IMG/VR virus record: IMGVR_UViG_3300009314_000003
Location: 64,001-128,000 of that record
Source of the DNA: a virus
Length of the DNA: 64,000 bases
Strand: one strand, 5' to 3'
Positions 6,001 to 23,700 of this stretch are shown here, piece by piece. Numbering within the stretch: position 1 is the stretch's first letter; the number at the start of each line of letters is the position of its first letter. Made by a program: the position numbers and the translations under genes. Under the pieces are notes generated by a model. The model was given only the letters and a program-made list of their open reading frames with translations. It was not told where the DNA came from and did not search any database.

Positions 6001-9000
6001 GTCGACTTCAGCTTTGGTGACCTTATTGACCCCGACTACCTAACCAGGAAACACTATTACGACAGGCCCTATATTTCGTGTCTAACTCCAGGTACCTTAA
6101 TTATAGGCGATAGAATTACAGCCATAGATAAAATCAGGGAAGGCTCACATGTTTATACTAAGTCAGGAGAACTATCAAAGGTTACCGAGGTACATAGAAG
6201 AAATGTAAAAGAGCATATCACCAACATCCGTATTGCTAAACACTCAGAGCCGCTGAGACTTACCTGGAATCATAAAGTGATGGTGATGCAAACTGAAGTA
6301 TGTAGTCATAGACACAACAGCTCTAAGTCTAGACGAGTGTGTAGATTTGGGTTAACAAACAGTGATTGTGTGAAATGTACAAACAAACTTTATAAGAACT
6401 ATGAACTCGGGTGGGTACGAGCTAAGCATATAGAACCTGGGGACATAGTAGTTAAATCCATACCAGATACGTCAGAAATTGTCGAATCAATCAACATAAG
6501 TGATTTTGTGCTAGATTATCCAGTTTATGATGGTTCAGTATATTATGCGCCGAGAGCAAATAAGCTGTCAGCTAAACTAGCTTGGATTAAAGCTCATATC
6601 CCCCAACACAAAGATAATGAGAAGGGAGCACTAAAGAGATTATCTGCTGCTTACGATATACCACTTGGGTATTTATATAATCACTACTATACTTGTAATA
6701 CTAATCAGTGGGAACGTTGGACTATACCAGATGCTCTACCTCTCGATAAGAACTTATTTACCATACTAGGATACTACCTTGCCGAGGGCTCACTAACAAC
6801 CAAAGGGGTTAGTTTCGTCTTTCATGAGAAAGAGTTGAATACATATGTTAAGGAACTAATCAATGCTGCTTCTAATCTTGGATTCAAATCATCGTCGTGG
6901 CGATATAAAGAAGGCTCAAAGGCTATTGAATTAACCATATACAGCGTAATTCTCAGGAAGATGGTAGATAGCTTATGTGGTAGGGCCGAGCAAAAACACA
7001 TTCACTCGTTATTGATGAAGGCCCCGAGGGAGTCCAGAATTGCATTTGTTAGATCCTATATAAATGGAGACGGTTGTTATACGGCCGTAGATAGGGGTAT
7101 TTGGACGGTAACATATACGAGTGTTGTACCTTCAATTAGTTATCAGATCCAGCAAATGTTGTCAACACTTGGTGTGTTTGCTGGTATCCACAAAAGTGAA
7201 TGTCCCCCATATAAGATCAAAATAAATGATAAAGTAAATGGCATATCCTCTGGTGTATACTATATAGGTACGATAAATGGTGTTGAGTGTAGAAAGCTTC
7301 TCGACTTATTTGAGATGGACCATCCACAAACCAATCCACCAGCTCCGAATAGGTGGGGGTGGATGGATAATAAGTTTATTTATTTAGCTGTTAGAAATGT
7401 AGACCGTGAGTATTATGAGGGACCAGTGTATGATATTACAGTTGATGGTGAGCACAACTACCAAACATCATCTGCAATAGTTCATAACTCCGATATTCCA
7501 TTTTTGGAGGTACCTCTAGTAGGACCGGCCCTGGCGGCAACAGCCGGACAGGCATTCCGGGCCATTCACCCCATGACACTTGATCACCCTATGCACAAGG
7601 AGGAGGTGCAGAGGGCTTTGCAGGAGGGCGTGGCCTACAGTTGGCGAGGGGAGGAGGAGCCCGGCTTCGGTCCCAGGTACACTGGTTCCGTGTATACAGA
7701 TGAATCATACAGTCAGGGTCGTATTATGGGGACACTCGAGGGTCGCAGTCCTACGATCCGCAGCAATATGGATGTACGACAGATCATCTCCGAGCAGATT
7801 TACAGGGGGTGGATTGAGCCGGCAGGTCTGGCTGGCTTCTGCCTACCAGAGGGATCTGAGGTTATTACTTATGGGGGCCTTTATAAGAAGGTGGAGGATA
7901 TTAATCTCGGTGATAAACTTATCACCCATAGGGGCCACCCTGGTAAAGTCACTAGGGTATATAAGAGATTTGTGGATGAGGATATTATTGAGCTTAGTGT
8001 TTCCCACTATGCCGATGTCCCTGTCCAATTGACGGGGGAGCATCCAGTCTTGGTAGCAAAAACGAAGCCCTGCCTGAAAACCCACGACAAACAACATTGC
8101 CTACCACTTCATGGATCTTCTAGGTGTTATTGTTGTCCAAGAGAGTTCAACACCAATCTGGAGTGGGTTGTGGCGAAGGATATTAAGGAGGGTGATTTTG
8201 TTGTTCAACCATCCTCTATAGGCCTTCCACATAGCGGTCTTTTGGATTTAGGTAAGATGGATGAGGTGGTAAATTATAAAAGGGTAAATAACAACAGCCG
8301 GTGCTCAAGAGATAGGGATCACAAATACTTTGTTATCGAGCATGACAATATTAGGTGGTGGAATGGTTCCAAGAAACGATTTCCAAGATACTTGGAGCTA
8401 ACCAAGGATCTTGGGTTCTTCTTCGGTGTATATTTGGCCGAGGGTAGTTTGGATCCTTCTCCCAATAAAGTAAATAAACACAACAGGGGCCCGGAGAGAA
8501 TACAGTTCGCCCTTCATAAAGATGAAACAGATGCCATAGGAAGACGCCTTATTCGTATTGCTCGGGAGTACTTCAATATTGATCCATCTAAATGCCACAT
8601 TACACCCAACCACGGAAATGGCATAAGATTAAGACTCCAATCTCATGCTCAGCTGGCTATAACTATGCATCTCCTTCTAGGATCAAAGGAGAACAAATAT
8701 CTACACCCATCCCTATCCAACGGTCCTACTAAGTTTATTATTGGTTTATTGGAGGGGCTACTAATCGGAGACGGTTGCGCATTTAACAATGAGAATTTAA
8801 CCACTATAACCCCTACAATTAGCCTAACAACCACTGCTTATGGTATTGTCCAGGCAGTACGTTATGCAATGACTAGAATAGGGCTACATCCTCCAGTAAC
8901 AACCAGGGATGATAGTATAGTTGGGAGAAAAACAATAATTAATAGTCACGTAGCGATCCATAAGCTCCCATCATATAGACTGCGGTTATCTGGGTATACA

Positions 9001-12000
9001 GCTGTTAAGCTAAATCAGTTAATACACCTCTACTCTGGGGACGGGGATTTCAATTATAAGCCTATACGCAAGAAGGCCCCAGAGGTTTTTACCTTATATG
9101 ATTACACTTATTTAAAGGTTAAGAAAGTAGTTAGCAAGAGATATAAAGGTCGTGTATATGATTTCGAGATTGGTGGGGATCATAGCTTTATGACTACTGC
9201 TTGTATAGTTCATAACTGTACCAGTGCCCTGTTATGGGATTCTGATGAACCATTCGTAGATGAGCCAGTCTTTGCCCCGGCTAGTGAGATGGACTCAATG
9301 GGACGTGCTTACTGGGATATGAATATTGGTGATCCATTCTTAATTGGCGAGGGTATACGTAGAATGATCCCCCGGCCCAGAACAAGTTATGAGAAGGTTG
9401 ATGACTTACTCAGAAACGATATGCCAGGATGGCTTCCTGAGAACTTTCGGCGTGGCGACCCCTTTTGCATTTCTCCGGATACTATGGTAGAGGTTTATGA
9501 TGGTCTGATTCGGGCGGATGGGGTCAAGGAGGGTGATTTGATTCGTACTATTAGGGGCCGGTATTTCCCTATTAACAAGATTGCTGTAAGAGAGGTAGAT
9601 GAACCGGTATACAAGATTAAACTTGCTGGTGTGGAATATATAACCACCGCAACAGCTGAACATCCATTTAGAATTCATCCTGGAAAATGGGCACTAGCTG
9701 AGGATTTAAGGCCAGGTATGTATGTTGCTTACCCGCGGCTGAAAATAGATTTCCCCACAGAGTTAGAAATTCTAGGTAGAAGGTTTCAGCTTTCCGGCCC
9801 ACTGGCTTACATACTAGGTAATGTACTTAAGTATGGCCGAGTGGGTGATTTGTCCCTGGCTGTTACAGGTGTGCCTGAGGGGGACAGTTTTGCCCGGACG
9901 GTACAAAACATATTAGGAATTAAACTTAGCAAGCAGGGTCATAGCAGAAGTAAAATATTGCTTAGTCTCTTCAAGGATCTTAATCTAAGGCTCCCTCCCA
10001 TGTTTTATGGGGGCCCATTAAATATATTCGCCTCATTCTTAAAACCATTTACGGACGAGCCTCTACCGGGCCGCCGATTCATTACCCTAACCCTACCCAA
10101 TATGTCATTAGCATACCAGGTATGGAATTGTCTAATACAACATGACGTCATAGGACAAATCGATGGATGCCAGATAACAATACCAAGATGGATGCTTGTG
10201 GGTTTCAATAAGAATGCTGTTCTCATAGACTATTTATGTGGAGATAGGGAGATATTACGCTACGGAGATATAAGTACCATACCCTATAAGAAACACGAAA
10301 GGGGTAATGATGATCACCTCTATATAAGAGTGGATGAGGTTGAGGAAATACATTATAAAGGCCCGGTCTATGGTTTTGAGGTTGATAGGGATAATACTTT
10401 TTGTGTTGCGGGCTGTATAAGTCATAACACCCGTATTCCCAGGGGCGAGGCCTTACTCCCTGGGCCGGGGTACGAATCAATGTTTAACATGGTTCTTGAC
10501 TTCCCCACCGGGGCCAGTAGGCTTGGTTATTCAGCCTATGAACAGGCCTTGCATATGATTGGCCTTAAAGATCCCCTCTCCGAGGATGAGGAAGAGATCA
10601 TGAGTGAGGGAACTGCAATCCACAAAATGGTACAGGCTCAGCTGACAAAGGAGGGGGTACTAAAAAAGGTTGAGGCATATGTAACAGATCCCTACAACCG
10701 TGTTTCATCCTATGTTGACGGTGTTATGGGGTCCGCCTACGGCGACATTCCGCTGGAGATTAAGAGCATCTCCAGTAAAGGTTTTCAGCAACTTACCCGG
10801 CCGAAGCACAAACATAACATCCAGTTGAATGCTTACCTGCATATGATGAAGGCACGTGAGGGTAAAATCTTGTATGTTAATAGGACTGACCCATCTCAGA
10901 CTAAGGAATTTAAGGTCCGTTATGACCCACGTCTCTGGGCGCAGACCCTGGCTGAATTGGAGACTGCTAGGGAATATGCCAGTCAGTTCCTGGGTGAGGG
11001 ATATGGCTCCTCCACGAATGGCTACTCATATGTAGATAGAATGCAGGTACTCATGAATGCCGCCCCCTTTTCCACAGAGTATAGAGAGGTAGCTCAAATT
11101 GTAGGGCAGCAGTCTGAGCTCGGACTCTTATCTGATGAGCAGGAGAACCACCTGAAGAGAATGAGGCGTTATCACCAGAACATGATGAGGCGCCATGAGC
11201 TCTATCCACATCGTTTCAAATGGAATCAAATTCTCGATCCGGATCCACAGTACCAGCAACTTAATAGTAATGAACTAATCAAGGCAGCTGCTGAATATCC
11301 ACTCCCGGCCAGAGTAGCTGGTTCGATCTGGGAATACATGACCCATCTCCGTTCGCCACTTCATAGCAAACTTATTGGCCAATACTCCCCCGAGGAACAG
11401 TATGAGAGGACTGTGTTATATGGGAGTACACACAAGAATTGGGCGAATCCCATATCCGATTTCGCTGAGCCTTATATGCGCGGACTTAAGTCTGTAACTG
11501 ATCCGGTACAGGGGGCTCTCTCTTTTGGCCTGGGTGGGTCCCTCTTCGGCGGACTACCTGGGGCCATCCTGGCTGGTACGTTTGGAGCTGTGTATGGCTC
11601 GGCTCATGGTATATACCGAGCAGCTACTGACAGCCGCTATGTGCCGGAGAGATTTGAGGAGATGCAGGAAATGGAGGAGTATTTTGATCGCCTCAAGTAC
11701 TATCGCTCCCATACACTGTACAAAGCCACCGGAGACAGACGTTTCCTGGATGAGATGGGCCGAACTGCAGTTGGTTGGTCAGCAAAAACTCGTGGCGGGA
11801 GGATGACCAGACAACGGAGGGAGGATGATACCAAGCGGAGCCCGTACGCCAATTATGCCAGGCAGCCAACAATATATGATATTACAGGTAATTCATCCAT
11901 ATACACCAGGATGATGAATTGGATGGGCGGTGTATTACCACCAGAGGGCATGACCCAATCCTCTCGCTGGGCTAATCAGTCATACTCTACAGCTGGTGGC

Positions 12001-12669
12001 ACAAACAGGGGCCATATGTCCCCCTGGTCAGGTCAGGATACAGAACGTGACTTGGGATTCAGTGCTAATGAGGAAAACCTGCTTGATTATAGTGGCGCTT
12101 ATGCTGCTATGCCTTACTGGGACAGACCCTTCTTCAACGCCTTTCTAACAACTCCTTATGAAAAGAGGGAAGATATCCTTGGGACGGTGGACAGAACCTT
12201 GGCTAGTATGTTACAGGCAGCCTGGGGTCACGGTGAGCCGGATATTGAGGGTATTGGCAATTACTTTGAGGACCACTATCAACCGCCCGCCGGTCATCCT
12301 ATAATGCTTCCGGGGGCTGAGTTTGAGGACTACAAATATGAGACCATAGATCAGGCTGGCCTGGCTGCTCATGACTTTGGTCTTGGCTGGAGAGATCAGC
12401 TGCGAAGAATTCAATCAAGCCCCATAGATATTAAACCCGTTAACATTAATGCTGAAGGCCCATCGAAGAAAGGCCTATCCCTGGATGCCGGACAAATTAA
12501 GCAATCTATGCACCAGATACTTGCTAGACTAGGTTACCAATCCACCCCTGTCAAGGTGTCAACAACAGAGTCTCTTACCGATTCAGTCTCTCTACGTGTA
12601 AACATCAAGAGGGACTCTACCAATCAAATTATTAACCTACATACAGAGTCAATGCGTTATGGCGGATAA
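1..12669 (+). CDS. Giant virion/ejection (tape-measure-like) protein precursor with five inteins and a C-terminal RecB/Cas4-like nuclease domain; 5'-truncated by the window
   Basis: Frame of the 307..12669 ORF has no stop back to base 1 (GWGAHQRD...), so the true start is upstream. Five intein start/HN-end pairs; Gly-rich hydrophobic segments (VLPGAAMGFAMGGVPGAITGGIL; GALSFGLGGSLFGGLPGAILAGTFGAVYG); GTAIH...VDG...EIK...QLNAY nuclease motifs; lies upstream of baseplate genes. Confidence 0.75.
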   Translation, partial: GWGAHQRDAHQGPAWWNIPGHAVNFARWLPGFLTIDLGARLGFGLVGAAKRATSNAVFKSQPLRSLPEIITNARRYAKDNLDSPVVNLITSTLASVRAFSHFVGGKTDANNQTKRFAERSYKTISGYRRTGATANEYITENTRRLFKDYRRFKAKAKSDLKRALSTDYTRTGAELTRLFDPDAAKSSPIHIFKKGFGVEYGGMREMSRHLFERKMPLVARLSGLESLRMRHLKGIGQSEEWKRIFRVIYKGIQSAREFGDAGNQVRKLVKGGYSEGGKRSFDDLIVDSRLFFDPVTKEVRNLSGFTFKDIIGRSLHYASKRLTFNTPLGKIDLVSIFGGRAVASYGMPSIVRLEHGRVPTKAIQRLYGVEVYPTPTDPSAKQFTQVLAIKDRKSGYTVWADVYGGDASGGTGLEVVARNMSLVSSTDSTKMMSVYAMRESMWPPLDKNALNERFKGGGITPTIRKWLHNKFDLFGGGKFYPSVWELALHHMRGDSRVWTIFHPEGLPARVASGIYKMKDLAASGGQKASYQIQYLDAAYRKARTEASKLLTRDDILSRILRKAYEGDTIKLWGVKTEFKIKDIIDEKIVEDGLPEPLRLVREILKIDETASADSRLGRNLKQIIDELTDRMPEMGGFHKYVSEGGVGETATVKAKRFLAERAILREADTLGAARQLDTPHAGDTVKNIVDDILVAFDDLAKTNAITTKDLLKVKMGMQGIRWEHEVRNLGSLSGKSQITGRGIDKLFQAVGERGLMAKEYKDVESLFDFLRKAKMEDPELWDSYRRMTGKFKTTMMVDSQRHALEMMSDVFGESPYLLFEGGPMGWAKNVFSWGYDTFGRTMDLVGLGWDRGRFPKFMGKDSIAGLWTKRFALMGGVAAAYQTVDTVTDTTPIFAGSLAHDELVAVRHKRTGLVSLVKIGEFVEDGRADNNQFEAWTNHGGKIGWYDITQGIRHKRETTLVRVELESGADLFVTDNHSLFTGSESNLQLQAPEVGKHIVALESQYPSGAGISRVDISDLVTSLPEKLYVAVEDPSLNRGNYKLRADAEDIWGSNYVRWLRDRVTYHKAVYRTTYEAYTECPKKEFTKIRHFRSPVKIPSGWELTREFGYVLGMFAAEGCATKSNGSVYGVLFSAKDYGSLGHRYKGHIRSRLVSALKTVFPDAKISHSHKKIILHGYLYYWLFHDVFKMGHGASNKRLPDFALNGPEGFRRGLIDGYIDGDGYQKQTGDTIRPAGIGSTSRELVTQVYLLLRMEGCQVKLSSREPRQGQIIDGRVVNGNYRTYAITIRDLHTDLYDVSNSNHARTIRSNRVSSAIASMSACEEQPDFVYDISVAGAEKFIAGFGFLYAHNTALDEGTTVFLADQAVRARLFAGYVYDITGITDTMKYLEGLMPKSTQVLPGAAMGFAMGGVPGAITGGILNAWTQPVLKEGPLSFLSLLPPTAPFVSDMTKSFKELQDLYSGRELEAVRKGSGWPFGSVPIEGCLTERTEVLVADGGTTSIRAIKVGDCVIGPAGPVLVTATKDRYTTPSEQLYTIISRYNRSDEVEITGNHPVLVAEDPFRCSVVSNGTCSPRRNQKCHKCSHPYWQSYKLGWKRADDITSDDLLAIPRRRFNSSSEHVIRWVDFLGDDYKYVGGHVWVNSKLGTFGNEALRAIVDLVLDDLPHKDSEKQRRIEAIATQSGRMPRQVRQKMVDVRDRLRDGCPRDCIDYVDLGSLAEYLPLSYETGRFLGLYAAEGSVCDNGTISFAFHANEIEYHQFVESCMRRYFGSDTVTHVSGPQTAGTNQWAVQCFSTPIASILGRMFNRGASSKDIPARLFEANDDFLRGFLRGLFDGDGHHNLIKPRVEMRLASKDLINQVQLVLEHFGVVGFVSQVDNNGFDAYEILVSSSNARALLQLMEGVHESTFYDSLPGKGAWVCGDFIFTEVHKISSRSCPEGTHVYDIEVAEGESFRTVGLHLHNSRITAYSPNWYPMLKAQYKATPALYGSKLEQWAFKDLPFVDFSFGDLIDPDYLTRKHYYDRPYISCLTPGTLIIGDRITAIDKIREGSHVYTKSGELSKVTEVHRRNVKEHITNIRIAKHSEPLRLTWNHKVMVMQTEVCSHRHNSSKSRRVCRFGLTNSDCVKCTNKLYKNYELGWVRAKHIEPGDIVVKSIPDTSEIVESINISDFVLDYPVYDGSVYYAPRANKLSAKLAWIKAHIPQHKDNEKGALKRLSAAYDIPLGYLYNHYYTCNTNQWERWTIPDALPLDKNLFTILGYYLAEGSLTTKGVSFVFHEKELNTYVKELINAASNLGFKSSSWRYKEGSKAIELTIYSVILRKMVDSLCGRAEQKHIHSLLMKAPRESRIAFVRSYINGDGCYTAVDRGIWTVTYTSVVPSISYQIQQMLSTLGVFAGIHKSECPPYKIKINDKVNGISSGVYYIGTINGVECRKLLDLFEMDHPQTNPPAPNRWGWMDNKFIYLAVRNVDREYYEGPVYDITVDGEHNYQTSSAIVHNSDIPFLEVPLVGPALAATAGQAFRAIHPMTLDHPMHKEEVQRALQEGVAYSWRGEEEPGFGPRYTGSVYTDESYSQGRIMGTLEGRSPTIRSNMDVRQIISEQIYRGWIEPAGLAGFCLPEGSEVITYGGLYKKVEDINLGDKLITHRGHPGKVTRVYKRFVDEDIIELSVSHYADVPVQLTGEHPVLVAKTKPCLKTHDKQHCLPLHGSSRCYCCPREFNTNLEWVVAKDIKEGDFVVQPSSIGLPHSGLLDLGKMDEVVNYKRVNNNSRCSRDRDHKYFVIEHDNIRWWNGSKKRFPRYLELTKDLGFFFGVYLAEGSLDPSPNKVNKHNRGPERIQFALHKDETDAIGRRLIRIAREYFNIDPSKCHITPNHGNGIRLRLQSHAQLAITMHLLLGSKENKYLHPSLSNGPTKFIIGLLEGLLIGDGCAFNNENLTTITPTISLTTTAYGIVQAVRYAMTRIGLHPPVTTRDDSIVGRKTIINSHVAIHKLPSYRLRLSGYTAVKLNQLIHLYSGDGDFNYKPIRKKAPEVFTLYDYTYLKVKKVVSKRYKGRVYDFEIGGDHSFMTTACIVHNCTSALLWDSDEPFVDEPVFAPASEMDSMGRAYWDMNIGDPFLIGEGIRRMIPRPRTSYEKVDDLLRNDMPGWLPENFRRGDPFCISPDTMVEVYDGLIRADGVKEGDLIRTIRGRYFPINKIAVREVDEPVYKIKLAGVEYITTATAEHPFRIHPGKWALAEDLRPGMYVAYPRLKIDFPTELEILGRRFQLSGPLAYILGNVLKYGRVGDLSLAVTGVPEGDSFARTVQNILGIKLSKQGHSRSKILLSLFKDLNLRLPPMFYGGPLNIFASFLKPFTDEPLPGRRFITLTLPNMSLAYQVWNCLIQHDVIGQIDGCQITIPRWMLVGFNKNAVLIDYLCGDREILRYGDISTIPYKKHERGNDDHLYIRVDEVEEIHYKGPVYGFEVDRDNTFCVAGCISHNTRIPRGEALLPGPGYESMFNMVLDFPTGASRLGYSAYEQALHMIGLKDPLSEDEEEIMSEGTAIHKMVQAQLTKEGVLKKVEAYVTDPYNRVSSYVDGVMGSAYGDIPLEIKSISSKGFQQLTRPKHKHNIQLNAYLHMMKAREGKILYVNRTDPSQTKEFKVRYDPRLWAQTLAELETAREYASQFLGEGYGSSTNGYSYVDRMQVLMNAAPFSTEYREVAQIVGQQSELGLLSDEQENHLKRMRRYHQNMMRRHELYPHRFKWNQILDPDPQYQQLNSNELIKAAAEYPLPARVAGSIWEYMTHLRSPLHSKLIGQYSPEEQYERTVLYGSTHKNWANPISDFAEPYMRGLKSVTDPVQGALSFGLGGSLFGGLPGAILAGTFGAVYGSAHGIYRAATDSRYVPERFEEMQEMEEYFDRLKYYRSHTLYKATGDRRFLDEMGRTAVGWSAKTRGGRMTRQRREDDTKRSPYANYARQPTIYDITGNSSIYTRMMNWMGGVLPPEGMTQSSRWANQSYSTAGGTNRGHMSPWSGQDTERDLGFSANEENLLDYSGAYAAMPYWDRPFFNAFLTTPYEKREDILGTVDRTLASMLQAAWGHGEPDIEGIGNYFEDHYQPPAGHPIMLPGAEFEDYKYETIDQAGLAAHDFGLGWRDQLRRIQSSPIDIKPVNINAEGPSKKGLSLDAGQIKQSMHQILARLGYQSTPVKVSTTESLTDSVSLRVNIKRDSTNQIINLHTESMRYGG
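2689..4050 (+). mobile_element. Intein 1 (454 aa) with LAGLIDADG homing endonuclease, Ser-initiated
   Basis: FAG|SLAHDELV start, block B VTDNHSL, LGMFAAEG and LIDGYIDGDG, block F VYDISV, end YAHN|T. Confidence 0.93.
4450..5883 (+). mobile_element. Intein 2 (478 aa) with LAGLIDADG homing endonuclease
   Basis: IEG|CLTERTEV start, ITGNHPV, LGLYAAEG, FLRGLFDGDG, VYDIEV, end LHLHN|S. Confidence 0.95.
6079..7488 (+). mobile_element. Intein 3 (470 aa) with LAGLIDADG homing endonuclease
   Basis: YIS|CLTPGTLI start, LTWNHKV, LGYYLAEG, FVRSYINGDG, VYDITV, end IVHN|S. Confidence 0.95.
7840..9216 (+). mobile_element. Intein 4 (459 aa) with LAGLIDADG homing endonuclease
   Basis: AGF|CLPEGSEV start, LTGEHPV, FGVYLAEG, LLEGLLIGDG, VYDFEI, end IVHN|C. 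Confidence 0.95.
9466..10428 (+). mobile_element. Intein 5 (321 aa) with degenerate homing endonuclease
   Basis: DPF|CISPDTMV start, ATAEHPF, VYGFEV, end ISHN|T. LAGLIDADG positions decayed (LAYILGNVLKYG; FLKPFTDE). Confidence 0.92.
10500..10980 (+). other. RecB/Cas4-like PD-(D/E)xK nuclease domain within the giant protein
   Basis: GTAIH (10609), YVDG (D at 10717), LEIKS (E at 10756, K at 10762), HNIQLNAY (Q at 10822), ILYVN strand. No Fe-S cysteines. Boundaries approximate. Confidence 0.85.
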
Positions 12670-15600
12670 AGAGAAAGATACAAGAGACATACTGATATCC
12701 TGGTCCCTAATTCTCCCTACCCTCCTGGGGATTGTAAAGGCTAATAAGAATCTACCTCGCCTGGCAGAGCTACAGGATCTACTTATCAGATACCTCAGGG
12801 GTAGGGTATCTATGTCTGATGTTATTTCAGGCCGTAAGGCTATACGGGCCGTATTAACTAAGGACGTGGAGCTTGAGAAGTTTGTCGAAGCCCGTAAGCA
12901 AGCATGGCAGGATCATCTCACCGGCAAGACTGGAAAGGAATTTAGTTCAAACATATCTGCTAAGTTTGTTGAGGACATAGAGGGCGGAAAAGATTTAGTT
13001 GAGACCAAAATTGATATCCACACCAGGGATACTCTGGCAAGCAGAATCGATGTTGTTAGGGAAAATCTGGGGAAACGGATTGAGGATATCAAGAATAGAA
13101 CTGGTATCAAGACCTCTGTATTGAATAGGAAGGACGCTATCAAGGCAAGGTCCACCTTTGACTTATTTGGAGCGCAGGTATGGTATGATATGTTTGGCAG
13201 TACAGGTCCTATATCTGGGGGTTCTGCCTGGGATATGATGGATGCACATGCGTGGTTCAGGGCCTATAAAACTTCAGGGCATATATCATTTACCGGGAAC
13301 ACACAGGACCTGGAGGTGAATAGTATTAGAAGTCGACTTTCGTCGTTTGATACATCACCCGAGAGTGCTGATGTAGACATACTTAAGAAATATGTTACTG
13401 AGCTGGAGAGAATTGAAAAGCAATTTGAGGCTCCTCAGCTAAAACCCATAAGTGGCAGCAGAGTCAAAGATCCCATATGGACCTCAATTATTGGCAACAG
13501 AGTGGCAACCTCGAATGGTAGGATTACTACTATTGGCGGAAAGGAGGTTATGGGGCTTGGTGCTATTGAGAGTAGTATTCAACAGAGCTTACTTGGCGAG
13601 TTGGAGCAGAACCTCGCACCACCAAAGCAGGGATTCCAAACCAGATTTGAGGATATATTCTATAACTATTCCCCCCAGACACAAAGATTTTATGATGTTG
13701 TATTATCACCTCAGTCACAAGCTAAGGAAGTTGCTAAGGTATTCAGATCGATGTCTGAACACCTGGGGAGATTGAAACGTGGTGGGGCAAATACTGTGGC
13801 TGCTAAGCTTGCGAAGGATGAGAGCACACAACGGGCCCTGACAAAGGTTATAAACAACATGGAGCTGCGACTGGAGGTTACTGAGGAGCACGCCTTAGGA
13901 CGTCCCTTCAAGTACTTTAAGTTCGTACTCGATTCCTCAGGGGCCGAGGTAGATAGGAGTATAAAGGTAGGGGATAAGACACTAGACAAACTGGTTGGTC
14001 GTATGGAGTTCTACTTCCCCACCGTCCAGGAAGGTTATTTAATTACACGCCCCGGCGTTCATCCTCTAACATCTCCCGCCACATGGCCAGCAGGGGCTAA
14101 GGGGATATCCCAGTTCATGTCTATACCAAGTACCGTAGCCTTGGATATAACTCAGCACATGCCAAAGTTCTATAATGAAATGATGGATGCCATGCTCAGA
14201 GGTGATAGGGCCCAAAACTATCTTATGAGACGCATTAATCATGCCATGGAACTGGCATCTCCTGCTAAAGGCACCGTAGGAGATATCTTTCGTATAGCCG
14301 CCGCCAAACATGTCGAGGGTAGAATATATGCTGGGTTGGAAGATTCCAGGATGTATATAAACGCCCTAAAGGCAAAGTCGGCTGTGGAAAACGTTAAAAG
14401 GATGCACACAACAGGTAAATCGCGTATCCTGGTATTTGATACTGAGTATGGTAAGGAAGGCCTTCTCTCCAGATCTTTGGGGGTACAGCGTATGGCACGG
14501 GACCCGGGCGTAAAGGTCTGGTCCATTGGCTATCAGATCCTTGATTATGAGGCCTCTTCAGGGAGGATGACGGGTATTATGGGTAAACCAGGCAAGCTTA
14601 TGATAAAGCCCAAAAACTGGAATAGTATCAAGAGTAATGTGGAGCAGTGGCTACGCAGGCAATTGCCCGATGAGAAAGCTGTGGAGAAGATAATTAATAA
14701 GATTCAGGAGGGTGAAGGACTACGGGAAGCCCTAAAGAAGCTGGTTGATGATATAAGGACCTATGGAAAGAACGATATATATGTCTCTGGTTTTGCTAGT
14801 ATGGATGCGGATTTGAAGAACCTGGCCCAGATGATTGATGCTGAATTCAGTAAGAAGGAGGCCTTAGAATGGAAGACGCAACTGAGTTATCTCCTTGATG
14901 TAGATATGGAACACGGGGCCCGTAGACAAATTGATGTTATGCGTCTTTACCAGGGCTTTTCCTTTGCCAGACCTGAGACAGCTATATCAAATGCCGCAGT
15001 ATTTGAAAGCCTGTATGGTATTGATTCAACGCGCTTCGGTGAGCTATTGACAATGGTAAAGGGGAAGAAGCAGGTGGAGCTAAAGGTCGCAGCGAAGAAG
15101 TTGTGGAGCAGCAGTTCAGAAATAGCCAAGGCCGAGCACGCATTCAAGACCTTTGAGAATATGAAGCTTGGGGTGACGGAGTATCATTCGCACATGGCCG
15201 AGTTTGACTGGACAATACACGCCATGAGTATGAAGAGGTTGTTTGGCCGCGTCATGGGCCCCAATACACTCGATCGTGAGGCTCTGGAACGCCTGTCAAT
15301 TGCTGCTGAGATACAACGTAACAGGTTAGCCGGTTACAAATCACCCTGGCACTACGTAACAGATACCATTCTGAATCCTCTCTTCGCCTCTACTTACTCA
15401 GTAAGTTCGTTTGATGGGGCCGGTACAAGTTATTCAGATCCCAATATGGCCCAACTCTCTCTCCATGCTATGCCTAAGGCACAGGCCGCGCGGATGATTG
15501 GGAGTTTACTGAACCCGGATCGTGTTTTACCTGGTGGTTTACTACATAATCTCCTCCGCCAGAAGTATCAATCCTTCTCAGGGCATATCCTATCTGTTAA

Positions 15601-18600
15601 TACAGGCCTCATGTTCAAGGATATGCACGCAGACATGACCCAGGTCATGAAGGAGGCAGACCTGCCTTTCCTAGGTATTGGTGAAGTAATGGGTACTCCC
15701 CACACCACCGCAATGCGTCAGCACATAATTAATACCTATATGGGCAGCTACGGCAATTATGCAAGGAACAATCTTAGAGTAACCCTAGGAGACAGAGCTG
15801 CGGAGGCGGCCATGAAAAAGACTACGATGCACATGACCGATAGTATCATAGGTCTTGTGGCTTACCTACCGGATAGGCATGGTTACACACACGATGCCGC
15901 CCTAAGAGTTAATAAGGCCATATTCGAATCAGTTAATGTACTTGGTCATGGAGACCGACCAGGCATCCGGAATATAGAATTGGAGATACCAATTCCTGAT
16001 GAATGGAAGAACAAGAGTGGTATGGCCATAAAAGATGTCCTGAAGAGACAAGGTTTTCACCCTGCCATACAAAGGCTTGCACGTGAATATGGAGGAAGAG
16101 TCTCCGGTATAGTTGACAAGAGGTGGGAATATTTCAAGATGGATGTGCTGGGTGAGGGGGATATAAGTGACCGCATCATCCACCCAGGTGATGAACTAAT
16201 TAAGGAGGTACAGGGTAGACGTGAATATCTCCGGTTGACTGATGTAGGTAGGAAATATGATAAGAAGTACCCTGCCGCTGTGGTTGGTATGAAGGTTGAT
16301 CTCGAACAAAATAATATTATAATTACCGTCAGTGAACACTCTCGCCCCATGCTGACCACCAAAATATCAACCGGATCTACTAAAACACTGTGGGGAACTG
16401 CCAGCTCAAAGGTGGAGAATGTAAATACAAAGGGCCGTGCTGTGGGTGGTGGTATGCTCTTGTTGGAGGGGTCAATAAAATCCCTAAAGGACTATGGTGC
16501 TATTGTCATGGCACAAATCGGACGTGTATTGAGGCATGTGTACAGCAGTAACCTCGGGCCTCTTGGGCAGGAGGGAGCTATTAAAAAGGCTTTGACACCT
16601 CTTCTCGGCAAGGACCTGGTTGAGGATATAACATTCCAGGATAACAGGCTGTTGACTACAGGAGGTAGGTCTATAGTCATCAGAAAACCTGAGCTGGGAA
16701 ACAAGATACAGACCCATCTCTCCCGTCACAGTGCCTCCGTACCCAAATTATATGACATGGTGGAGGCAGCTGGTATAACTATCGGTGAGGTGCGTAAGTT
16801 GTTCAATATCATAACGAGTAATATACTGGAGAGTGAAACAGAGAGGGAGAAGCTCTTTAATCAATTAGGCAGGGACCACCTGAACTCTCTGGAGAGAGAG
16901 AAGGACAGGTTACTAGGTAAAATAGCAACAGCCGGTGAGGGGCGAAGTAAGAAAGAGATTGAGAGGAGTAAGAACATGGTCTCGAGACAAATTAGGAGTT
17001 GGAAGGCCTTTGTCGAGAGACAGGATGAATCTGGGACAGCCCTATTTGATTTTATGGCTACCAAACCTTTTGCGGATAGTGCTGTACTAACCTCACATAA
17101 TGCCATAATTGCTCTCGAGAGCTTACATATCGTAGAATCTGGGCCCATCGACTTTATGAGGTCCTTTGACAGGATGGAGAGCTTCTACGGTTTTCCACTG
17201 GGCCCACAGAAATTAAGTCCGGCGGATGCTAATGTCCTGGAGGATGCTGTCCGGCGTGCCGCTGGAGAGGATATAGCAGCACTGGAAATAATGGTCGAAA
17301 TGGACAAGATGCGCGGCTTTGCCTATATAAGTAAAAAGACAGGCAGACCTATAATCAGGGAATCCATACAAGCTGTTAACCTGGCTATGAAATTTCTTAG
17401 AGAAGGCAGGCCGGCCCTGGCAGCGGCCCTTGGTGAGGAGGGGACTACCAAGATATTGAATTATGAGGCTGTGCAACAGCTAGCAGAGAAATCTGGCTTC
17501 ATAGAGCTTATGTCCACCAAGGATATGGAATCTGTTCTGACAAAGCTGGATGCTATTACCGATGAGAGACACGTAGGACGAAAGGTGGCTGACGCCCTGG
17601 TGGATATGGGCATCCTCGGCGCGAAGGAGGGTATGAGTGAGCACGACCTGATGAAACTATTAAATGACTTTGGTATCTCGGGACCAGATGTAGAATACTT
17701 TACAGACGTGATAAACCAGGACAGGATTCACCTTGTGGACAAGACTCTCCTGAATGAGATCAAAATGTTCCGCACTACAAAGGGTAGTATGAAGGACATA
17801 ACCTTGCTGGAAGTTCAAAATACCAGCAGCGCAATCAAGGCTTTGAAAGCTCGTGTGGGAAAGAGTAGGGCAGATGTAAAGAGAGTAGAGAAGCTTGAGG
17901 GATGGCTGAAGAATACAGGTCGGACTAGCTTGTATAAGGAAGGCTTCACCTTTGATCTTAGGGAACATCTATTTGGCTATCTCATGGACAACCCGAATAT
18001 GGCGAAGGGAAAGACAGATATACTTCTACGGCAGGTATCTAACTACCTAGAGCGTATGGCGAAGAGGGGATCCCTGCGGGTCGGTGCAGATTTCATTCCC
18101 ATACCAAAGGCTGCCGTACTGATGTCTATCCTCCAATCCTCTAACCTAAGTAACCTCCTGGGAGGAAAAAATGCCTTCCTTGGAGGGGCCGCAGTGTCTA
18201 CCCTGGAAGTAATGAGAGATGTGATGCAGTTCAATCAAGCAACCAAAGATATTGCTGGTCTTGGTGATGGTGCAAAAAAATCTGTGGAGGAGTTAATTGA
18301 GAACTGGACGTCTAAGGTACAACAGCTGGAGCATTCCATAGGAGTGCTGCAGGAACGGGTAATTGGGCCCTCCGTATCTCAGCTCATCAAGAAGGCCTTT
18401 ACCCTATATGCCCCCACCTCATACGGCAAGTTGTTACACCCCCTCCATCTGCTTCCTACACTCCAGAATAAGTTGTACGGAGCTCCTGGCGGCCTGGAGA
18501 AGGCCCTGAGTAACTTTCCTAAGTCCGAAGTTATCAAGATAAATAATAAGGTGTTTGCAGAGATAGATATTAAGAAGGCCTTTGCTAATCTAGTTGATGC

Positions 18601-20563
18601 ACCCTCCGAGGGGGGTTCCCAGTTGTTTGGACCTATGGACGGCGGTCTGCAGAGAATAAGGTTCAAAGGCCTGGGAGTCAATGAAGCGATCATGCCGATG
18701 CATGTGGCTAAGGAGCAGGTAATTAGAATAGCTAAGCAGCACGGCGGTTCAATACCTAAACCCAAACTGGTGAGGGATTGGCTTATGGGCAAAACTGCCT
18801 CCCCCTTCCCAATCCACCGCGGTAAGCAGCCAATTATATATAGTGGTACCAGCTTGGCCAAGGTGTATGTAGTACCAGATGTTCTGTGGGAACTACATGG
18901 AGGGCTTGATATAGATGTCAAGAAACAGTCAAAGATGGGCAACTTACATGGCCTTGTCTATATAGATCCCGTGGCGGCTATATCAGACCTGGCTGACTGG
19001 GATGGTGATTTAGGGATGATGGTCTTCGCCGGCAATACCCCAAGTACAAGGGCCATACAAGCTGCGACCAATCGGACTGAGGAACTTGTGAAATATCTAA
19101 CCTGGAAGCAGAAGGTATCTGGTGATGCCCCGCTGGATAGGGTAACTGATGCCGTTACTGTCGACCTTGATCCGGAGAACTTTAAGAAGACCGGCAGGGT
19201 AACTTATATGGTACCTAATAAGAATTACAAGAAGGTAATTGATACAACTGCTACGTTGGACATTTTCCCTGTGAAAGACTTCTACGATCGCTCCAATCAT
19301 GATTTCACTGTTCTCAAGACATCTCTGATTGATGAATATATTACCAACGAATTGGTGACCGGCAGGCTTGGAAATATGCACAAGTACCTACAGTCACAGG
19401 TCCTTGGCAAACCATCTGTCTGGGAGCAGTTGTCACATGAACTCTCCGACAATAAGAAATTGGCTAAGTTTCTTAAGGAGGAAGGCATCTCTGCCTTAGA
19501 GGTACAGGAGGCTGTGCACTATATCCTTAATAAGGAGGCCAAATCGGGTATGAAATTTGCCACTGCTGTTGAGAAGTGGTCAGGAAACCTGGTTGAGGTA
19601 ATGACTGTCCAGAAGATCCTTGGGGGTGAACAGATTAGTGGATCCTCCGCAAGATTGAAGAAGGATCTTATCAATAAAATACTCAGCAGCAATCAAAGTC
19701 TGCTGAGTGGCTCAATTGTAGATGAATCTCAGGGTGTTGTGAATAGGCTGGCATTAATGCCGGAAAAGCCGGATGCATCCCTGATGCAATTTATCTCGCC
19801 CGACAAGATAAGCAGGTTAAGCGACGCAGATGTAAGGGATATGGCTAGGGTATCCAGGAAACTGACAGTGGATGTTGGCCTTATAATACTTGCCTCGCAA
19901 AAGGCAGCTGAATTCTTGAATAAACCGGATGCCTTCGGTGTTACCTATATAAAAAAGGCCCTGGACTCCTCCACAGCTGCAATACAGGGTAACATAGGAT
20001 TCCACTTCTCCCTTATGGCGGGGCTGGGGGCCTCGGCAAAGTGGGAGGACTTCGCCTCAGGTATATTTGGTAAGGACAATCTTGCCTACAGCCTAAGTGA
20101 ATTTCAGCGGGGTATGCCGATGTCCGGCCGCCGCACAATATTAGAATCCATTAAGACAGGTATACGTGAGCATGTAGGTGAAGAGGGTTACAGATCCCTA
20201 GGTAAGAGTGTGAAATGGGCAGGCCTCGCAGCCTTAGCCCTAATGGCCCTTGATCCTAATGCTAATAGTAAACTCCTAGGACCTACCCCCGGTGAGGGAG
20301 GTGAAAAATATGATCTCCCAACCATCCAATCCATCTTGGATGTGTATAAGCAGAAGAAGCCAAGGCTGCTCGAGCCCAGTGCTACTATGATGGATAAGTT
20401 GGCTACACTGACAGGGCTGCCAATAGAGTCCTTGCCACAACTAAAACAAGGGAGGAATCTTCCTCCACGACCGAGTATACGCTACAATAATAGAAGGAAG
20501 AAATACAGCCGTCATAATATCGGACAATACATCCGTGATGGAAACGGAGTACTACTGACCTAA
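12659..20563 (+). CDS. Putative single-chain two-barrel (beta+beta'-like) RNA polymerase with N-terminal DEDDh 3'-5' exonuclease domain, likely virion-associated
   Basis: Exonuclease motifs ILVFDTE (14438), [20 protein letters not shown] (15191). Beta-like [16 protein letters not shown] (15857-15902) and [14 protein letters not shown] (16343-16384). Beta'-like [13 protein letters not shown], RGKQP and [15 protein letters not shown] (18965-19009). Overlaps the end of the upstream gene. Confidence 0.78.
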   Translation: [2634 protein letters not shown]

Positions 20564-20565
20564 TT

Positions 20566-20751
20566 ATGCATATTACTATAGAGGTTGACCTAAATAATAT
20601 TCCCTATGATGTTGATGTCACTGAGATTATTGGCTATCTACAATCATATCTTCAAGAGACATACCAGGTTGATGTGAATATGATGGTGGATGACTACGAC
20701 TTCGTCAATAAGATTGACCTGGGCCGGCAGATGAAGGCTATGAAGCGTTAA
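20566..20751 (+). CDS. Small hypothetical protein (61 aa)
   Basis: Fills the gap exactly; starts 2 nt after the upstream stop and has a TAATG overlap with the next gene. Confidence 0.65.
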   Translation: MHITIEVDLNNIPYDVDVTEIIGYLQSYLQETYQVDVNMMVDDYDFVNKIDLGRQMKAMKR

Positions 20752-23700
20752 TGTCTATTTACAACACCACTGACAGAATCAACTATCTCTCAACCGTTGA
20801 GCGCATCTCCAAGGAAAACGGCATTGATCCTGACTTTGTAGATGCCATGATAGGTGCAGAGTGCTCCTGGGACCTCAATTTGGCTGGCGGGACAGGCGCA
20901 CTTGGATTAATGCAACTTATTTCGGACAGCAGTATTGTGGAGATTATACAATGGCGGGAATCTCAATTCCATGGACAAGATCTGAAGGAATTAACAACCA
21001 AAGCAGGAGAAGATCCAGAAATCAATATTCGGATTGGTATTGACTATTTGAGGTATATTGACCTTCACCCCAGCACTTATGTCAGACCGAATGCTGCTCT
21101 CCTCGCCGCATCATATAATCAGGGTTGGCCCACTGTGGGGGACGCCGGCTGGACGGTCCCTACAGATGCTCAGGTCTACGTAAATAATATTCAAAAGCAG
21201 ATGCGTGTCTTGAAGAATAACAGTAGCTTCCTGCTGGCTGAGTATTATCCCATCGAGCTTGAGGACACCTCCGCCGACGATCTCGAGAAGAAGAAGCTAT
21301 ACTACAAGATGAGCGACCCCAAGGAGTTGGGCCTCCTGGTTATTGGTGACCTGCAATTCACCGTCCCACCCACAGCCATTAACTTCTCCTCAGACAGTCA
21401 GGCCATCTCTATTCCCACCCTTCGCTCCTCAGGTGATCCAGTCATTACCAGCAACACAGCAGTACCAAGGGCCCAGGTGGTTCTTTACTTCACAGGTGTG
21501 AATGCAATTAATAGGGAACTGAGACCCCTTTACGCTATGTTCCATAAGGCACCCTTCACCACGGTGCAGAACAACACCCTCCACAAACTTATGGTAGGTA
21601 AGAAGCAGGAGCAGTTGATGAATACATCTACTAAAGATTTTTCCCCTATCCCTATTATGCTGGAAGGAATTACCCTACACACCGTTCCAGGATTTCCTGG
21701 TACGATACAGGCCAATGTCTCCCTGGCATTTATAAATCACTTCCCCCATGTATCGGAGATGAAGTTCTTCAAAAAGACAGAAGACGCCAAGGCCCAAGCC
21801 AGGTATATGACTTACCGAAGTAGTAAGGCCTACAACACCATCAACCTTAGGGAGGATGGTAACCTCACATACATTACAGCGGAGGGAACCCCTGGTACCG
21901 CAGGTAAACCAGCGGGTGGTAAAACTACTCTCTATCCCGGGGGTAGTTGGCCCTTCATACGTCACTACAGGGGTCTCCTAAGGGAGTTTAAGGAGTCATA
22001 CTTTGCTGATATGTCTAATAGGGTAGAACCTTGGTGTGAATATAATGCAACTTCTGCGCAAGGTATAAAAATCCAATACAATAGCATCTTAGTCTACGAC
22101 ACAATGGAGCAAAACCTACTACGCAACCTGCGAGGAATAAGTGACATGTTGCACCGCCTCAAGGTAATGAGGGCATTGGCCACCAAGGACATTGCCATTA
22201 ACGCGGCCACGGGAGGTGGGCCTAAGAGCGTACTTATTGATGGTAAAGAAGTAGACGTTCAACCGACTGATATTGGAATGTTTACCTTTGAAGGTAGAGG
22301 AGCAGAAATATTAGAAAAGTATTTTAGTTTCTGGGAGCATTATATCGATGCCTTCGCGGGTATAAGATATACACTTAATGAGCTGAGGACAGAGATTACA
22401 CAGGCTTATAACCAATTTAAAACGATAACGGAGGAAAAGGCAGAAGGCATCGAGGTTGATTTCACCTTCCTAAGTGATGACGACCAACTCACAAATAACA
22501 GTGAGGTGATTAAGAAGAGCCTGTTACAATATGTTTATCTCCTACGTAAGAGAAAAGAACTCGCCAGTGAGACGGGAATGGATGAGGAGAAAAGTAAGCT
22601 AAATATTGCAATAGATAAGTATCATAAACTCTATGAAGCTATGGGACAGCACTTTAATGATTCCGTTGAGGACTGGGCAAAGGAGGAAAAGGTTAATCCT
22701 AAGATAGTCCATCCCATCGAATTTACTCTGGGGTGGGATGATACACTTAGTCCCAAATACAATGAGAATGCACTAAAGGAGGCACTAGAGAAACAGAAGG
22801 ATACGGCGGTTCAGAAGGCTAAACTACGATATAATACTGTCGTCAACTCTATAGGTGTTTCGTATCAGAATAATATTACTCCTATTCCTATTCTCGCCTT
22901 CGAGAACCCAACTTTCCAACATATGGGAATATCTAACGCAGTGGTCACTATCAATCTCAAGACAAAAGACGAAGATCTCCTTGCCCGTTTGACTGATGTA
23001 AGGCAAAGTATAGCTCATATCTCACGTGCTGTTGCGTCCGGCGGCAATAACGACCTGGCTGATCTGGAGCTATCAAAAATCACCATCACTGATGGCCTAT
23101 TGAACTCCCTCGGCCTGAACGAATTTGCCCTCAGGGACCTGGATGTACGGAGTATCTCCGGCTCTCCGGGATGGTACGAGATTACTTTGGAGCTTGTACA
23201 AAATGAAATGGATCTTACTAAGTTTGAACAGTTAAGCAGTATTCCCTCCTACCAACTTCCGAGGGATGCAGTGGCAACCCTCTTTCCATCCAAGGATTTT
23301 GAGCCGTATGACTTTTTTGACTCGCTTAAGGAGGAATATAATAAGAAAAACAAAGCACTTCGTGAGCGTATAATGGATTACAGATTCTATACGTCAGAAG
23401 TATGCAGGAGGGTGATAAAGAAACATTATGCAAGGCCTACAGCGAAAGACGCATTTGGGGAATATGTACTTGGCTCGGAGTATGGAGTAAGTGTCGAGCT
23501 AATTAGAGAACTGCCGGGGGGTAACCCATATTACGAATTCATTATCGAGGTGTATAATATCGATACCGGGGTGAAAGATACCTCCAGGACAAAATTCTAC
23601 AGGAGTATGGTTGGGCCATTACTCAGACGAGCAACCATTATCTGCCAAATGGCCCGTGCCTTTGAGAATGAAAAGAATTACGAACTAGGTGTCGGGTCCT

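Follow-up and report, generated by a model that had tools for sequence, protein, structure and literature searches.

A divergent DEDDh-type exonuclease domain predicted in a giant tail-module protein of an uncultured phage, together with a conserved polymerase-like Asp triad

The window, the whole stretch of DNA analysed here, comprises 64,000 nucleotides (positions 64,001 to 128,000 of IMG/VR record IMGVR_UViG_3300009314_000003) from an uncultured phage (148 kb, the record being ~77% complete). It contains a virion structural (tail) module, away from the replication genes on the other arm, in which several very large open reading frames lie on the same strand:

1..12669, + strand: upstream giant ORF (4,392 aa in the whole genome), intein-rich and in a tape-measure-like position
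12659..20563, + strand: giant ORF (P0001) with a product of 2,634 aa (2,634-2,695 aa in full-length homologues)
20566..20751, + strand: 61-aa ORF, whose position is kept in all homologue loci (61-66 aa)
20751..27887, + strand: downstream giant ORF of 2,378 aa, in which residues 17-132, at the N-terminus, form an SLT lytic transglycosylase domain (PF01464, E 6e-8)
29161..30366, + strand: baseplate wedge or baseplate J-like gene (phrog_6, E 4.5e-32), which closes the conserved block

The 2,634-aa ORF shares its first 11 nt with the end of the upstream giant ORF. With an overlap as short as this and no obvious slippery site, a programmed frameshift between the two was considered and not favoured. 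All homologue loci, three of which are long enough for the comparison, share the order of an intein-rich giant ORF, a 2,634-aa-type ORF, the 61-aa-type ORF and a further giant ORF, and run on to baseplate J where the contig reaches; the SLT domain is established in the ORF of the window only. This conserved order suggests that the product is delivered by the virion, like the crAss gp66 or P23-45 tape-measure RNA polymerases (RNAPs), and most likely it is packaged and reaches the envelope or cytoplasm of the host along with the DNA.

A full HMMER scan of ~1.84 billion representative sequences identified three other lineages as the only relatives of the 2,634-aa protein, all with the same length and architecture. 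Word-indexed protein searches returned the window's own protein and nothing else, IMG/VR scans only a near-identical copy of one of these three lineages, a metagenome scan zero homologues, and tblastn against 50,697 phage records no match. Overall identity among the four lineages is ~25%, with 11.7% of alignment columns invariant. Both ends of the protein are hydrophobic and conserved:

12689..12742, + strand: N-terminal hydrophobic helix (residues ~11-28), conserved in all homologues and a possible membrane segment
20213..20560, + strand: C-terminal hydrophobic stretch AGLAALALMAL, then a tail that is strongly conserved, from the alignment and hydropathy

Hydropathy exceeds 1.5 only at the N-terminal helix, where residues L12, I13, S14, P20, T21, G24, V26, K27 and A28 are invariant in the four-lineage alignment. 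The C-terminal tail is marked by the conserved motifs DPNAN, GGE.YD.P, PQL and PPRP.IRY.

The original prediction had placed a DnaQ/RNase T-type 3'-5' exonuclease domain at residues ~585-870, on the basis of four motifs whose positions are all borne out by the translation of the ORF at 12659-20563 (+):

14411..15268, + strand: divergent DEDDh (DnaQ-like) 3'-5' exonuclease domain, residues ~585-870, predicted from an AF2 model and its Foldseek PDB, VIA and BFVD matches
14423..14446, + strand: ExoI, RILVFDTE, residues 589-596 (D594, E596), with FDTE invariant in all four lineages
14780..14812, + strand: ExoII, YVSGFASMDAD, residues 708-718 (D718 invariant), with Ala here in place of the Asn present in the homologues
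14930..14941, + strand: IDVM, residues 758-761 (D759 and M761 invariant), in a low-confidence part of the model
15191..15208, + strand: ExoIII, HMAEFD, residues 845-850 (H845-x4-D850; H845, A847 and D850 invariant), with model pLDDT <50

By themselves these motifs are weak evidence for an exonuclease: shuffling a protein as long as this yields a loose D.E...D...H....D pattern in 71% of cases and a strict one (a hydrophobic strand with DxE, then HxAxxD) in 0.45%. They rise above chance because they are conserved across the homologous lineages: D594, E596, D718, D759, H845, A847 and D850 are invariant in all four, and H845 is the sole invariant His out of 55. The ExoII motif had been described as lacking its usual Asn, which is true of P0001 and not of the family, as the homologues carry Q-N-x4-D, with the N-x4-D spacing of the active E. 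coli oligoribonuclease (Orn). The ExoIII spacing is H-x5-D in the homologues versus H-x4-D (HxAxxD) in P0001, and neither the N-to-D nor the H-to-D spacing is regular within the family. We read IDVM as the counterpart of the IDT-type strand in DnaQ-like exonucleases.

Searches of Pfam, PHROGs, NCBIfam and PADLOC gave no match to the whole protein or to the exonuclease region, and neither did PDB sequences searched by phmmer and by profile; PF00929 (RNase_T) had no match on the genome even at E <= 10. Alignment by hhalign of the exonuclease-region profile with E. coli DnaQ, RNase T and Orn gave P ~0.45, with ExoI and ExoII lined up, and ESM Atlas look-ups yielded nothing usable. Comparison with the RNase_T/DnaQ families, the route by which the original prediction proposed to recognize the domain, leads to no family profile that matches it. 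The catalytic fold is invisible to every sequence profile tried, and was found only through motif conservation and structure prediction.

The AF2 model of residues 560-900 is of middling confidence (mean pLDDT 57.5), with core blocks at 65-85, and its elements run in the order strands, helices, strand, helix, with a helical insertion of ~55-70 residues ahead of ExoIII. ExoI lies on strand 28-40 and D718 opens helix 154-170, following strand 148-150 (all in model numbering). A Foldseek search of the PDB has 3'hExo and Pol III epsilon in its ten best rows (best E 9e-4), and the remaining rows, which include the C-terminal half of UvrC, are mostly DEDD exonucleases too. The best match to an active enzyme is 3'hExo/ERI1; VIA aligns the model with human 3'hExo (1w0h) at Z 9.4 over 140 aa with an rmsd of 3.3 A, and the offset between the matched ranges (24..208 versus 123..266) places D594 on catalytic D134 of 3'hExo, assuming no intervening gap. 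When VIA was run on 48,161 chains without the Foldseek prefilter just five reached Z >= 8, all of them DnaQ-like, the top one being the inactive RNase H-like domain of ESRP1 (Z 9.5). The VIA matches overall have Z 9.4-9.5 over 139-140 aa at 3.2-3.3 A; the unfiltered run also lists Maelstrom, Exuperantia, QIP, B-family exonuclease domains and nsp14, and the structural neighbours include the Orn/REXO2 nanoRNases and the CBASS-associated Cap18. Named rows in a search of the viral library BFVD are mostly exonucleases.

Unrelated models occasionally score close to a VIA Z of 9.

Since an RNase H-like fold is predicted and the homologues retain the acidic residues, the proposal of a DnaQ/RNase T-type domain at ~585-870 holds up against both of the objections set out for it in the original prediction. 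We are highly confident that these residues contain an exonuclease fold, and the model points to a genuine 3'-5' exonuclease of the DnaQ type, very divergent and probably active.

The rest of the protein contains the features that bear on a polymerase:

16184..16408, + strand: candidate beta-type barrel, residues ~1176-1250 (K1235 invariant), from a by-eye resemblance to GDK...KG and without statistical support
18656..19033, + strand: beta'-barrel-like segment, residues ~2000-2125, ending in the Asp triad and with no leftover similarity when the motif is removed
18995..19009, + strand: DWDGD, residues 2113-2117, with D2113, D2115 and D2117 invariant in the four-lineage alignment

A2112 is invariant too, such that the motif reads A-D-[FW]-D-[GR]-D (2112-2117), with DFDGD in two homologues and DFDRD in one. 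Comparison with E. coli beta' by hhalign aligns the Asp triad with the NADFDGD loop at P 0.002-0.004, scoring 30.7 versus 15.4 +/- 2.7 for 200 column shuffles (maximum 26.1); once the motif is excluded it falls to 13.2, the same as the null mean. For the second (beta-type) barrel candidate the hhalign score is 15.6 versus a null of 12.8 +/- 2.6. A conserved VD.YLTQ.L..G..G at 2224-2242 is a candidate for the bridge helix or trigger loop. The AF2 model of residues 1100-2260 (1,161 residues) has a pLDDT of 36 and is unusable, its Foldseek list being meaningless. The Pfam families PF00623 and PF05183 have no match on the genome, and Pfam, PDB-sequence and profile searches gave no match to any RNAP. 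Profile comparison with crAss gp66, the P23-45 gp96 family and this genome's other RNAP candidate, a 1,041-aa ORF with DFDFD, revealed nothing past the motif. The absence of this other RNAP candidate from one homologue contig, a 28% fragment, is uninformative.

The exonuclease had been described as fused to the N-terminal side of an RNA polymerase core. The Asp triad is conserved, whereas no beta' similarity past the motif and no match to an RNAP profile were found and a second barrel is not supported; the claim of a fusion to an RNA polymerase depends solely on the conserved Asp-x-Asp-Gly-Asp motif. We put the presence of a two-barrel polymerase in this protein at close to, or a little under, even odds.

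The reading we prefer, at a probability of roughly 0.45, is that this is an injected polymerase-bearing protein with a divergent, probably active DEDDh exonuclease that would act on 3' ends where the DNA enters; we consider it the most likely one because the Asp motif is of the same kind as that which marked the crAss and P23-45 virion RNAPs. The 2,634-aa protein, with its hydrophobic helices at both ends, would be packed in the virion and enter the host with the DNA. Two divalent metals would be bound by D594, E596, D718 and D850, and nucleotides would be removed from a free 3'-OH end with H845 as the general base; in the C-terminal third A-D-[FW]-D-[GR]-D would be the metal-binding motif of the polymerase. 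The substrate may be of two kinds. In one version the exonuclease would trim or edit the 3' end of the linked polymerase's product, as in DNA polymerases; in the other it would resect the 3'-ended strand of the entering genome end, leaving a single-stranded template of the type that single-chain two-barrel virion RNAPs prefer in vitro. The crAss protein gp66, for example, transcribes single-stranded and not double-stranded DNA in vitro (10.1101/2020.03.07.982082). That the protein is a virion-delivered single-chain two-barrel polymerase with its own active DEDDh exonuclease, either editing the nascent chain or resecting the genome end, is a tentative and on balance unlikely proposal.

Other readings differ from this one in what they make of either domain. 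Chance motifs in a long protein combined with a fold match from a mediocre model would leave no exonuclease at all, and the frequency of the loose pattern in shuffles, the low mean pLDDT, a Z of 9 that unrelated models sometimes reach and the lack of a profile match are all compatible with this; we nonetheless consider it very improbable, since the catalytic residues are jointly invariant, the strict pattern is rare in shuffles, three structure searches are each led by DEDD exonucleases, unfiltered VIA gives only DnaQ-like chains at Z >= 8, and ExoI falls on the ExoI of 3'hExo by range offset. A domain that is DnaQ-like and catalytically dead, serving as a scaffold or nucleic-acid-binding module that holds the DNA end or another virion protein (cf. 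ESRP1, Maelstrom and Exuperantia), is less far-fetched though still improbable. The top VIA match is to the inactive ESRP1 domain and Maelstrom and Exuperantia are also listed, the ExoII Asn is missing in P0001, the family spacings are irregular and ExoIII is not confidently modelled. Dead domains usually lose their catalytic residues, whereas here the His and all four carboxylates are kept in a family in which 88% of columns vary. The homologues also have the N-x4-D spacing of an active enzyme, E. coli oligoribonuclease.

An active exonuclease without a polymerase is the alternative that we take most seriously, even if we judge it unlikely. The protein would then be an ejected tail-lumen or ejectosome component with a nuclease directed against host nucleic acids or nucleotide immune signals, and DxDGD would be an unrelated metal site. 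The exonuclease fold and its conserved catalytic residues fit this reading, as do the loss of RNAP similarity without the motif, the unsupported second barrel, and the presence of Orn/REXO2 nanoRNases and Cap18 among the structural neighbours. T7 gp16-type ejection proteins carry an N-terminal SLT domain, and the adjoining giant ORF has one too. Against it, four lineages are unlikely to share an invariant A-D-[FW]-D-x-D by chance, and the same kind of motif rightly predicted two virion RNAPs; moreover, our searches found no DEDDh anti-defence effector, PADLOC gave no match, and an enzyme that forms part of a 2,634-aa chain is ill-suited to bulk degradation. DEDD exonucleases are typically fused to DNA polymerases in known enzymes, and the protein could instead be a two-barrel DNA polymerase with an attached DEDDh proofreader, a phage counterpart of archaeal PolD with a role in replicating the genome or in end repair, and not in transcription. 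PolD provides the precedent of a two-barrel core that can make DNA (PMC6355029), and a search of the 148 kb for DNA polymerases of family A or B found none, although clamp-loader genes are present. As the record is only ~77% complete a DNA polymerase gene may simply be missing, the gene lies in the tail module between the tape-measure-like and SLT ORFs and not with the replication genes, and the two-barrel core itself is unproven; this reading is the most improbable of those considered.

The virion RNA polymerases of phages (N4, phiKZ-like, crAss-like and P23-45) start viral gene expression without the host enzyme, and we know of no nuclease reported in any of these. A conserved and, as predicted, probably active DEDDh exonuclease in a giant tail-module protein widens the range of activities that phages may deliver with their DNA. 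If the Asp-triad region turns out to be a two-barrel polymerase, no earlier RNA (or DNA) polymerase of that class would have an exonuclease covalently attached to it; in line with the original prediction, our literature search turned up no description of a DEDDh domain fused to a two-barrel polymerase. It would then bear on the supply of single-stranded template or on fidelity in minimal two-barrel polymerases, and on the relationship of RNA to DNA polymerases that PolD represents.

Among DEDDh exonucleases (3'hExo/ERI1, ERI2/ERI3, Orn/REXO2, the PolC and Pol III epsilon domains, and RNase T), the phage domain is predicted to share the RNase H-like fold and, in the canonical order, ExoI DxE and the residues assigned to ExoII (Asp) and ExoIII (HxAxxD), and its homologues share the N-x4-D spacing of E. 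coli Orn. It differs in having no detectable sequence or profile similarity to them, a 55-70-residue helical insertion, Ala for the ExoII Asn, H-x5-D in the homologues, and a location embedded at 585-870 of a tail-module protein of 2.6k aa, which was found nowhere else. Coupling of a DEDD exonuclease to a polymerase, as we infer here, is shared with family A, B and C DNA polymerases and with the coronavirus nsp14 ExoN and RdRp, although those polymerases have right-hand or Pol-beta-like folds and not two-barrel cores. In eukaryotic RNAi, RRF-3 with ERI-1 and the QDE-1 pathway with QIP each pair a two-barrel RdRP with a separate DEDDh exonuclease. The phage protein resembles these in combining a two-barrel polymerase, putative here, with a 3'hExo-family exonuclease; unlike it, the RNAi pairs are separate proteins in a complex that act on RNA, and common descent with the phage protein is unsupported.

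The closest parallels in setting are with virion RNAPs. The tape-measure-fused virion RNAP of P23-45 (gp96) was recognized by its DFDGD motif, the only similarity that could be detected (PMC10770324), and like the protein described here is a giant tail-module protein with a DFDGD-type motif and membrane segments, which in our case are putative. They differ in that the motif-bearing protein here is a separate ORF following the tape-measure-like one, and does not form the N-terminus of the tape measure, and gp96 is without an exonuclease domain, the word 'nuclease' being absent from PMC10770324; similarity to the gp96 family by hhalign is confined to the motif, at P 0.015. The gp66 protein of phi14:2 (2,180 aa; 10.1101/2020.03.07.982082) has no described exonuclease, shows no similarity to the 2,634-aa protein in profile comparison and belongs to a crAss-type podovirus module, unlike the baseplate-bearing module here. 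In common with the 2,634-aa protein it is a single giant virion-type polypeptide with an Asp triad (DFDID in gp66) and ~1,600 residues of unknown domains, and giant structural ORFs adjoin it.

The source is a single IMG/VR virus record of 147,988 bases, estimated to be 77% complete, of which the window is bases 64001-128000. The whole record carries terminase, portal, baseplate, clamp-loader, helicase and ribonucleotide reductase genes, and the window contains three very large ORFs arranged head to tail on the + strand, the second of which encodes the protein studied here, P0001.

Genes (window coordinates, strand) and motifs (residues of P0001)
1-12669, +, upstream giant ORF; 4,392-aa product when the whole genome is considered, rich in intein and LAGLIDADG domains
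12659-20563, +, P0001 ORF; 2,634 aa
20566-20751, +, 61-aa acidic ORF filling the gap between the P0001 ORF and the downstream giant ORF
20751-27887, +, downstream giant ORF; 2,378 aa, N-terminal SLT lytic transglycosylase domain (residues 17-132, E 6e-8)
29161-30366, +, baseplate-wedge gene, downstream of the SLT-bearing giant ORF
Residues 589-596, ExoI, RILVFDTE
Residues 708-718, ExoII, YVSGFASMDAD
Residues 758-761, IDVM
Residues 845-850, ExoIII, HMAEFD
Residues 2113-2117, Asp triad, DWDGD

P0001 starts, in the +1 frame, at an ATG 11 nt before the stop codon of its giant upstream neighbour (window 12659-12669), and this overlap, with similar ones of 14-23 nt at the homologue loci, suggests translational coupling. 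Repeated Intein_splicing, LAGLIDADG_3 and Hint matches at window 307-12669 (+) indicate that the upstream giant ORF carries several inteins; its counterparts at the homologue loci are also intein-bearing, in differing numbers, with products of 2,571 to more than 3,390 aa. The genome (148 kb) has two clamp-loader-like genes, a Dda/RecD-like helicase and a ribonucleotide reductase (a 1,389-aa ORF that probably has an insertion), and yields no profile match to a family A or B DNA polymerase; because the record is only ~77% complete, a DNA polymerase may sit in the missing part.

Residues 575-880 were searched by a full HMMER scan against 1.84 billion representative proteins, which yielded, besides a 1,949-aa variant of P0001 itself, only three other clusters (2,634-2,695 aa, 34-36% identical to P0001 within these residues), and scans of IMG/VR and metagenome contigs added solely a near-identical copy of one known homologue. 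Gene context is the same at all loci: an intein-bearing giant ORF is followed by a P0001-type gene, an ORF of 61-66 aa and then a second giant ORF. At three of the four loci, two further ORFs (233 and 167 aa) lead on to Baseplate_J, and the fourth contig stops inside the second giant ORF. The 1,949-aa variant (P0002, on a 42.5-kb contig) is identical to P0001 until about residue 1915, then changes frame and ends early, so that the Asp-triad region would be lost; its final residues resemble the same nucleotides moved by one base, and it represents a frameshifted variant or else an error in a separate assembly of this phage.

The original prediction placed a DEDDh 3'-5' exonuclease at residues ~585-870, N-terminal to an RNA polymerase core, and on re-location RILVFDTE, YVSGFASMDAD, IDVM, HMAEFD and DWDGD all lie where claimed. 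The exonuclease motifs alone are weak evidence, since in so long a protein the loose pattern D.E...D...H....D arises in 71% of shuffles (0.45% for a strict version). Conservation is more selective: only 11.7% of columns in the four-way alignment are invariant, and these include F593, D594, T595, E596, D718, D759, M761, H845, A847 and D850, the acidic residues D594, E596, D718, D759 and D850 thus holding in all four lineages and H845 being the sole invariant histidine out of 55. The reported lack of the usual ExoII Asn is true of P0001 and not of the homologues, which have G-Q-N-x4-D, with the N-to-D spacing of E. coli oligoribonuclease. ExoIII spacing is H-x4-D in P0001 and H-x5-D in the homologues, IDVM is followed by a conserved block S-N-x-A-x-F-x-x-L-Y-G, and ~55-70 residues ahead of ExoIII form a helical insertion.

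A check of the exonuclease region (residues ~585-870) by profile search gave no match in any profile library searched. The four-sequence alignment served to build an AlphaFold2 model of residues 560-900, whose mean pLDDT is 57.5, with values of 65-85 across most of the sheet-and-helix core and below 50 around IDVM and from about residue 835 on, ExoIII included. In three independent searches this predicted model matches DEDD/DnaQ-like exonucleases, in keeping with an RNase H-like fold. The best ten Foldseek rows against the PDB (best E 9e-4) are 3'hExo and Pol III epsilon. Among the remaining rows, most are RNase T, ERI3, CRN-4, Orn, REXO2, Caf1 or exonuclease domains of DinG and Cas2-DnaQ; the UvrC C-terminal half also appears. 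VIA-align to the 3'hExo nuclease domain gives Z 9.4 and an rmsd of 3.3 A over 140 aligned residues, and the aligned ranges (model 24..208, 3'hExo 123..266) place D594 on the catalytic D134, assuming no gap between. A Foldseek-independent search of 48,161 representative chains returns only five at Z >= 8, all of DnaQ-like fold, followed by thirty that are nearly all DEDD exonuclease domains; in a viral structure library, exonucleases make up most of the rows that bear a name, and many rows bear none. From the model, with its middling scores and poorly modelled ExoIII, and from conservation, we put the probability of an exonuclease fold in P0001 at about 0.85.

The presence of the inactive relatives ESRP1, Maelstrom and Exuperantia among the structural neighbours is the main source of doubt about activity. 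Inactive DnaQ-like domains are usually without catalytic residues, whereas these are invariant in the P0001 family, and the predicted domain is likely to be catalytically competent. Model and conservation together indicate a genuine exonuclease domain whose sequence is novel and whose location is unusual.

At the Asp triad, A2112, D2113, D2115 and D2117 are invariant. The motif reads DWDGD in P0001, two homologues have DFDGD and one has DFDRD; the DFDRD lineage (P0004, locus L002) also differs in flanking residues (DLLEI vs DIG.L). Aligned by hhalign to E. coli beta' 300-520, the family profile of residues 1895-2260 pairs the "R.P..H" and "hPL.....ADFDGD" stretches (P 0.004 against the single beta' sequence, 0.002 against an 81-sequence beta' profile), and none of 200 column shuffles (mean 15.4, sd 2.7, max 26.1) reaches its score of 30.7. 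Scores this high are limited to alignment windows holding the motif, and cutting both profiles just before the triad drops the score to 13.2, the null mean, so the whole statistical signal is the motif itself, with no similarity to beta' beyond it; the motif is also what first drew attention to the region. A candidate beta-type barrel at ~1176-1250, resembling one by eye, is not above null (15.6 vs 12.8 +/- 2.6), comparisons with crAss gp66, the P23-45 gp96 family and the phage's own 1,041-aa DFDFD ORF yield nothing beyond the motif, Pfam RNA_pol_Rpb1_2 and RdRP do not match, and a model of the 1,161-residue segment 1100-2260 is unusable (pLDDT 36). No Pfam family matches the 1,041-aa ORF (locus L006, G000:C1:6747-9872, - strand; DFDFD at residue 501), which aligns only weakly with the Asp-triad region of P0001 (P ~0.05).

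The P23-45 tape-measure RNAP was discovered by a DxDxD search of virion proteins and has no other detectable similarity (PMC10770324), and similarity in crAss gp66 is limited, around its DFDID (10.1101/2020.03.07.982082). Because these precedents still count, a two-barrel polymerase in P0001, not established, is given close to an even chance. The exonuclease half of the original prediction is borne out by fold searches and conservation, and the polymerase half rests on one motif, leaving the fusion plausible; its main rival, an injected nuclease effector that lacks a polymerase, has the loss of signal outside the triad on its side and the invariant triad and its precedents against it. If the 1,041-aa ORF and P0001 were both polymerases, the phage would mirror the P23-45 pair of virion and non-virion RNAPs.

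P0001 has a conserved hydrophobic helix at residues 11-28 and, at its C-terminus, a hydrophobic stretch and a highly conserved tail. These conserved ends, the tail-module position, the tight coupling to neighbours and the SLT-bearing giant neighbour all agree with a protein carried inside the virion and released together with the DNA, which would parallel T7 gp16, N4 gp50, crAss gp66 and P23-45 gp96; T7 gp16 has an SLT N-terminus. If delivered, a tethered 3'-5' exonuclease would work on 3' ends at the entry site. It might edit or trim the product 3' end of the linked putative polymerase; to our knowledge, all other DEDD domains linked to a polymerase have this role, including nsp14, which works with the coronavirus RdRp. 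Alternatively, as the genome end enters, it might resect the 3'-ended strand there and so lay bare single-stranded template, for which gp66 and QDE-1 show a strong preference in vitro (10.1101/2020.03.07.982082).

Full-text literature searches turned up no account of a two-barrel polymerase with a fused DEDDh domain, or of such a domain inside a virion RNAP or tape-measure-type protein, in agreement with the original view that no such fusion is described, and neither the P23-45 RNAP paper (PMC10770324) nor the gp66 preprint (10.1101/2020.03.07.982082) mentions a nuclease. Functionally, the two closest parallels are PolD, where the exonuclease is separate (DP1) and has a different fold, and the RNAi RdRPs with ERI-1/QIP, exonucleases that are likewise separate from the polymerase.
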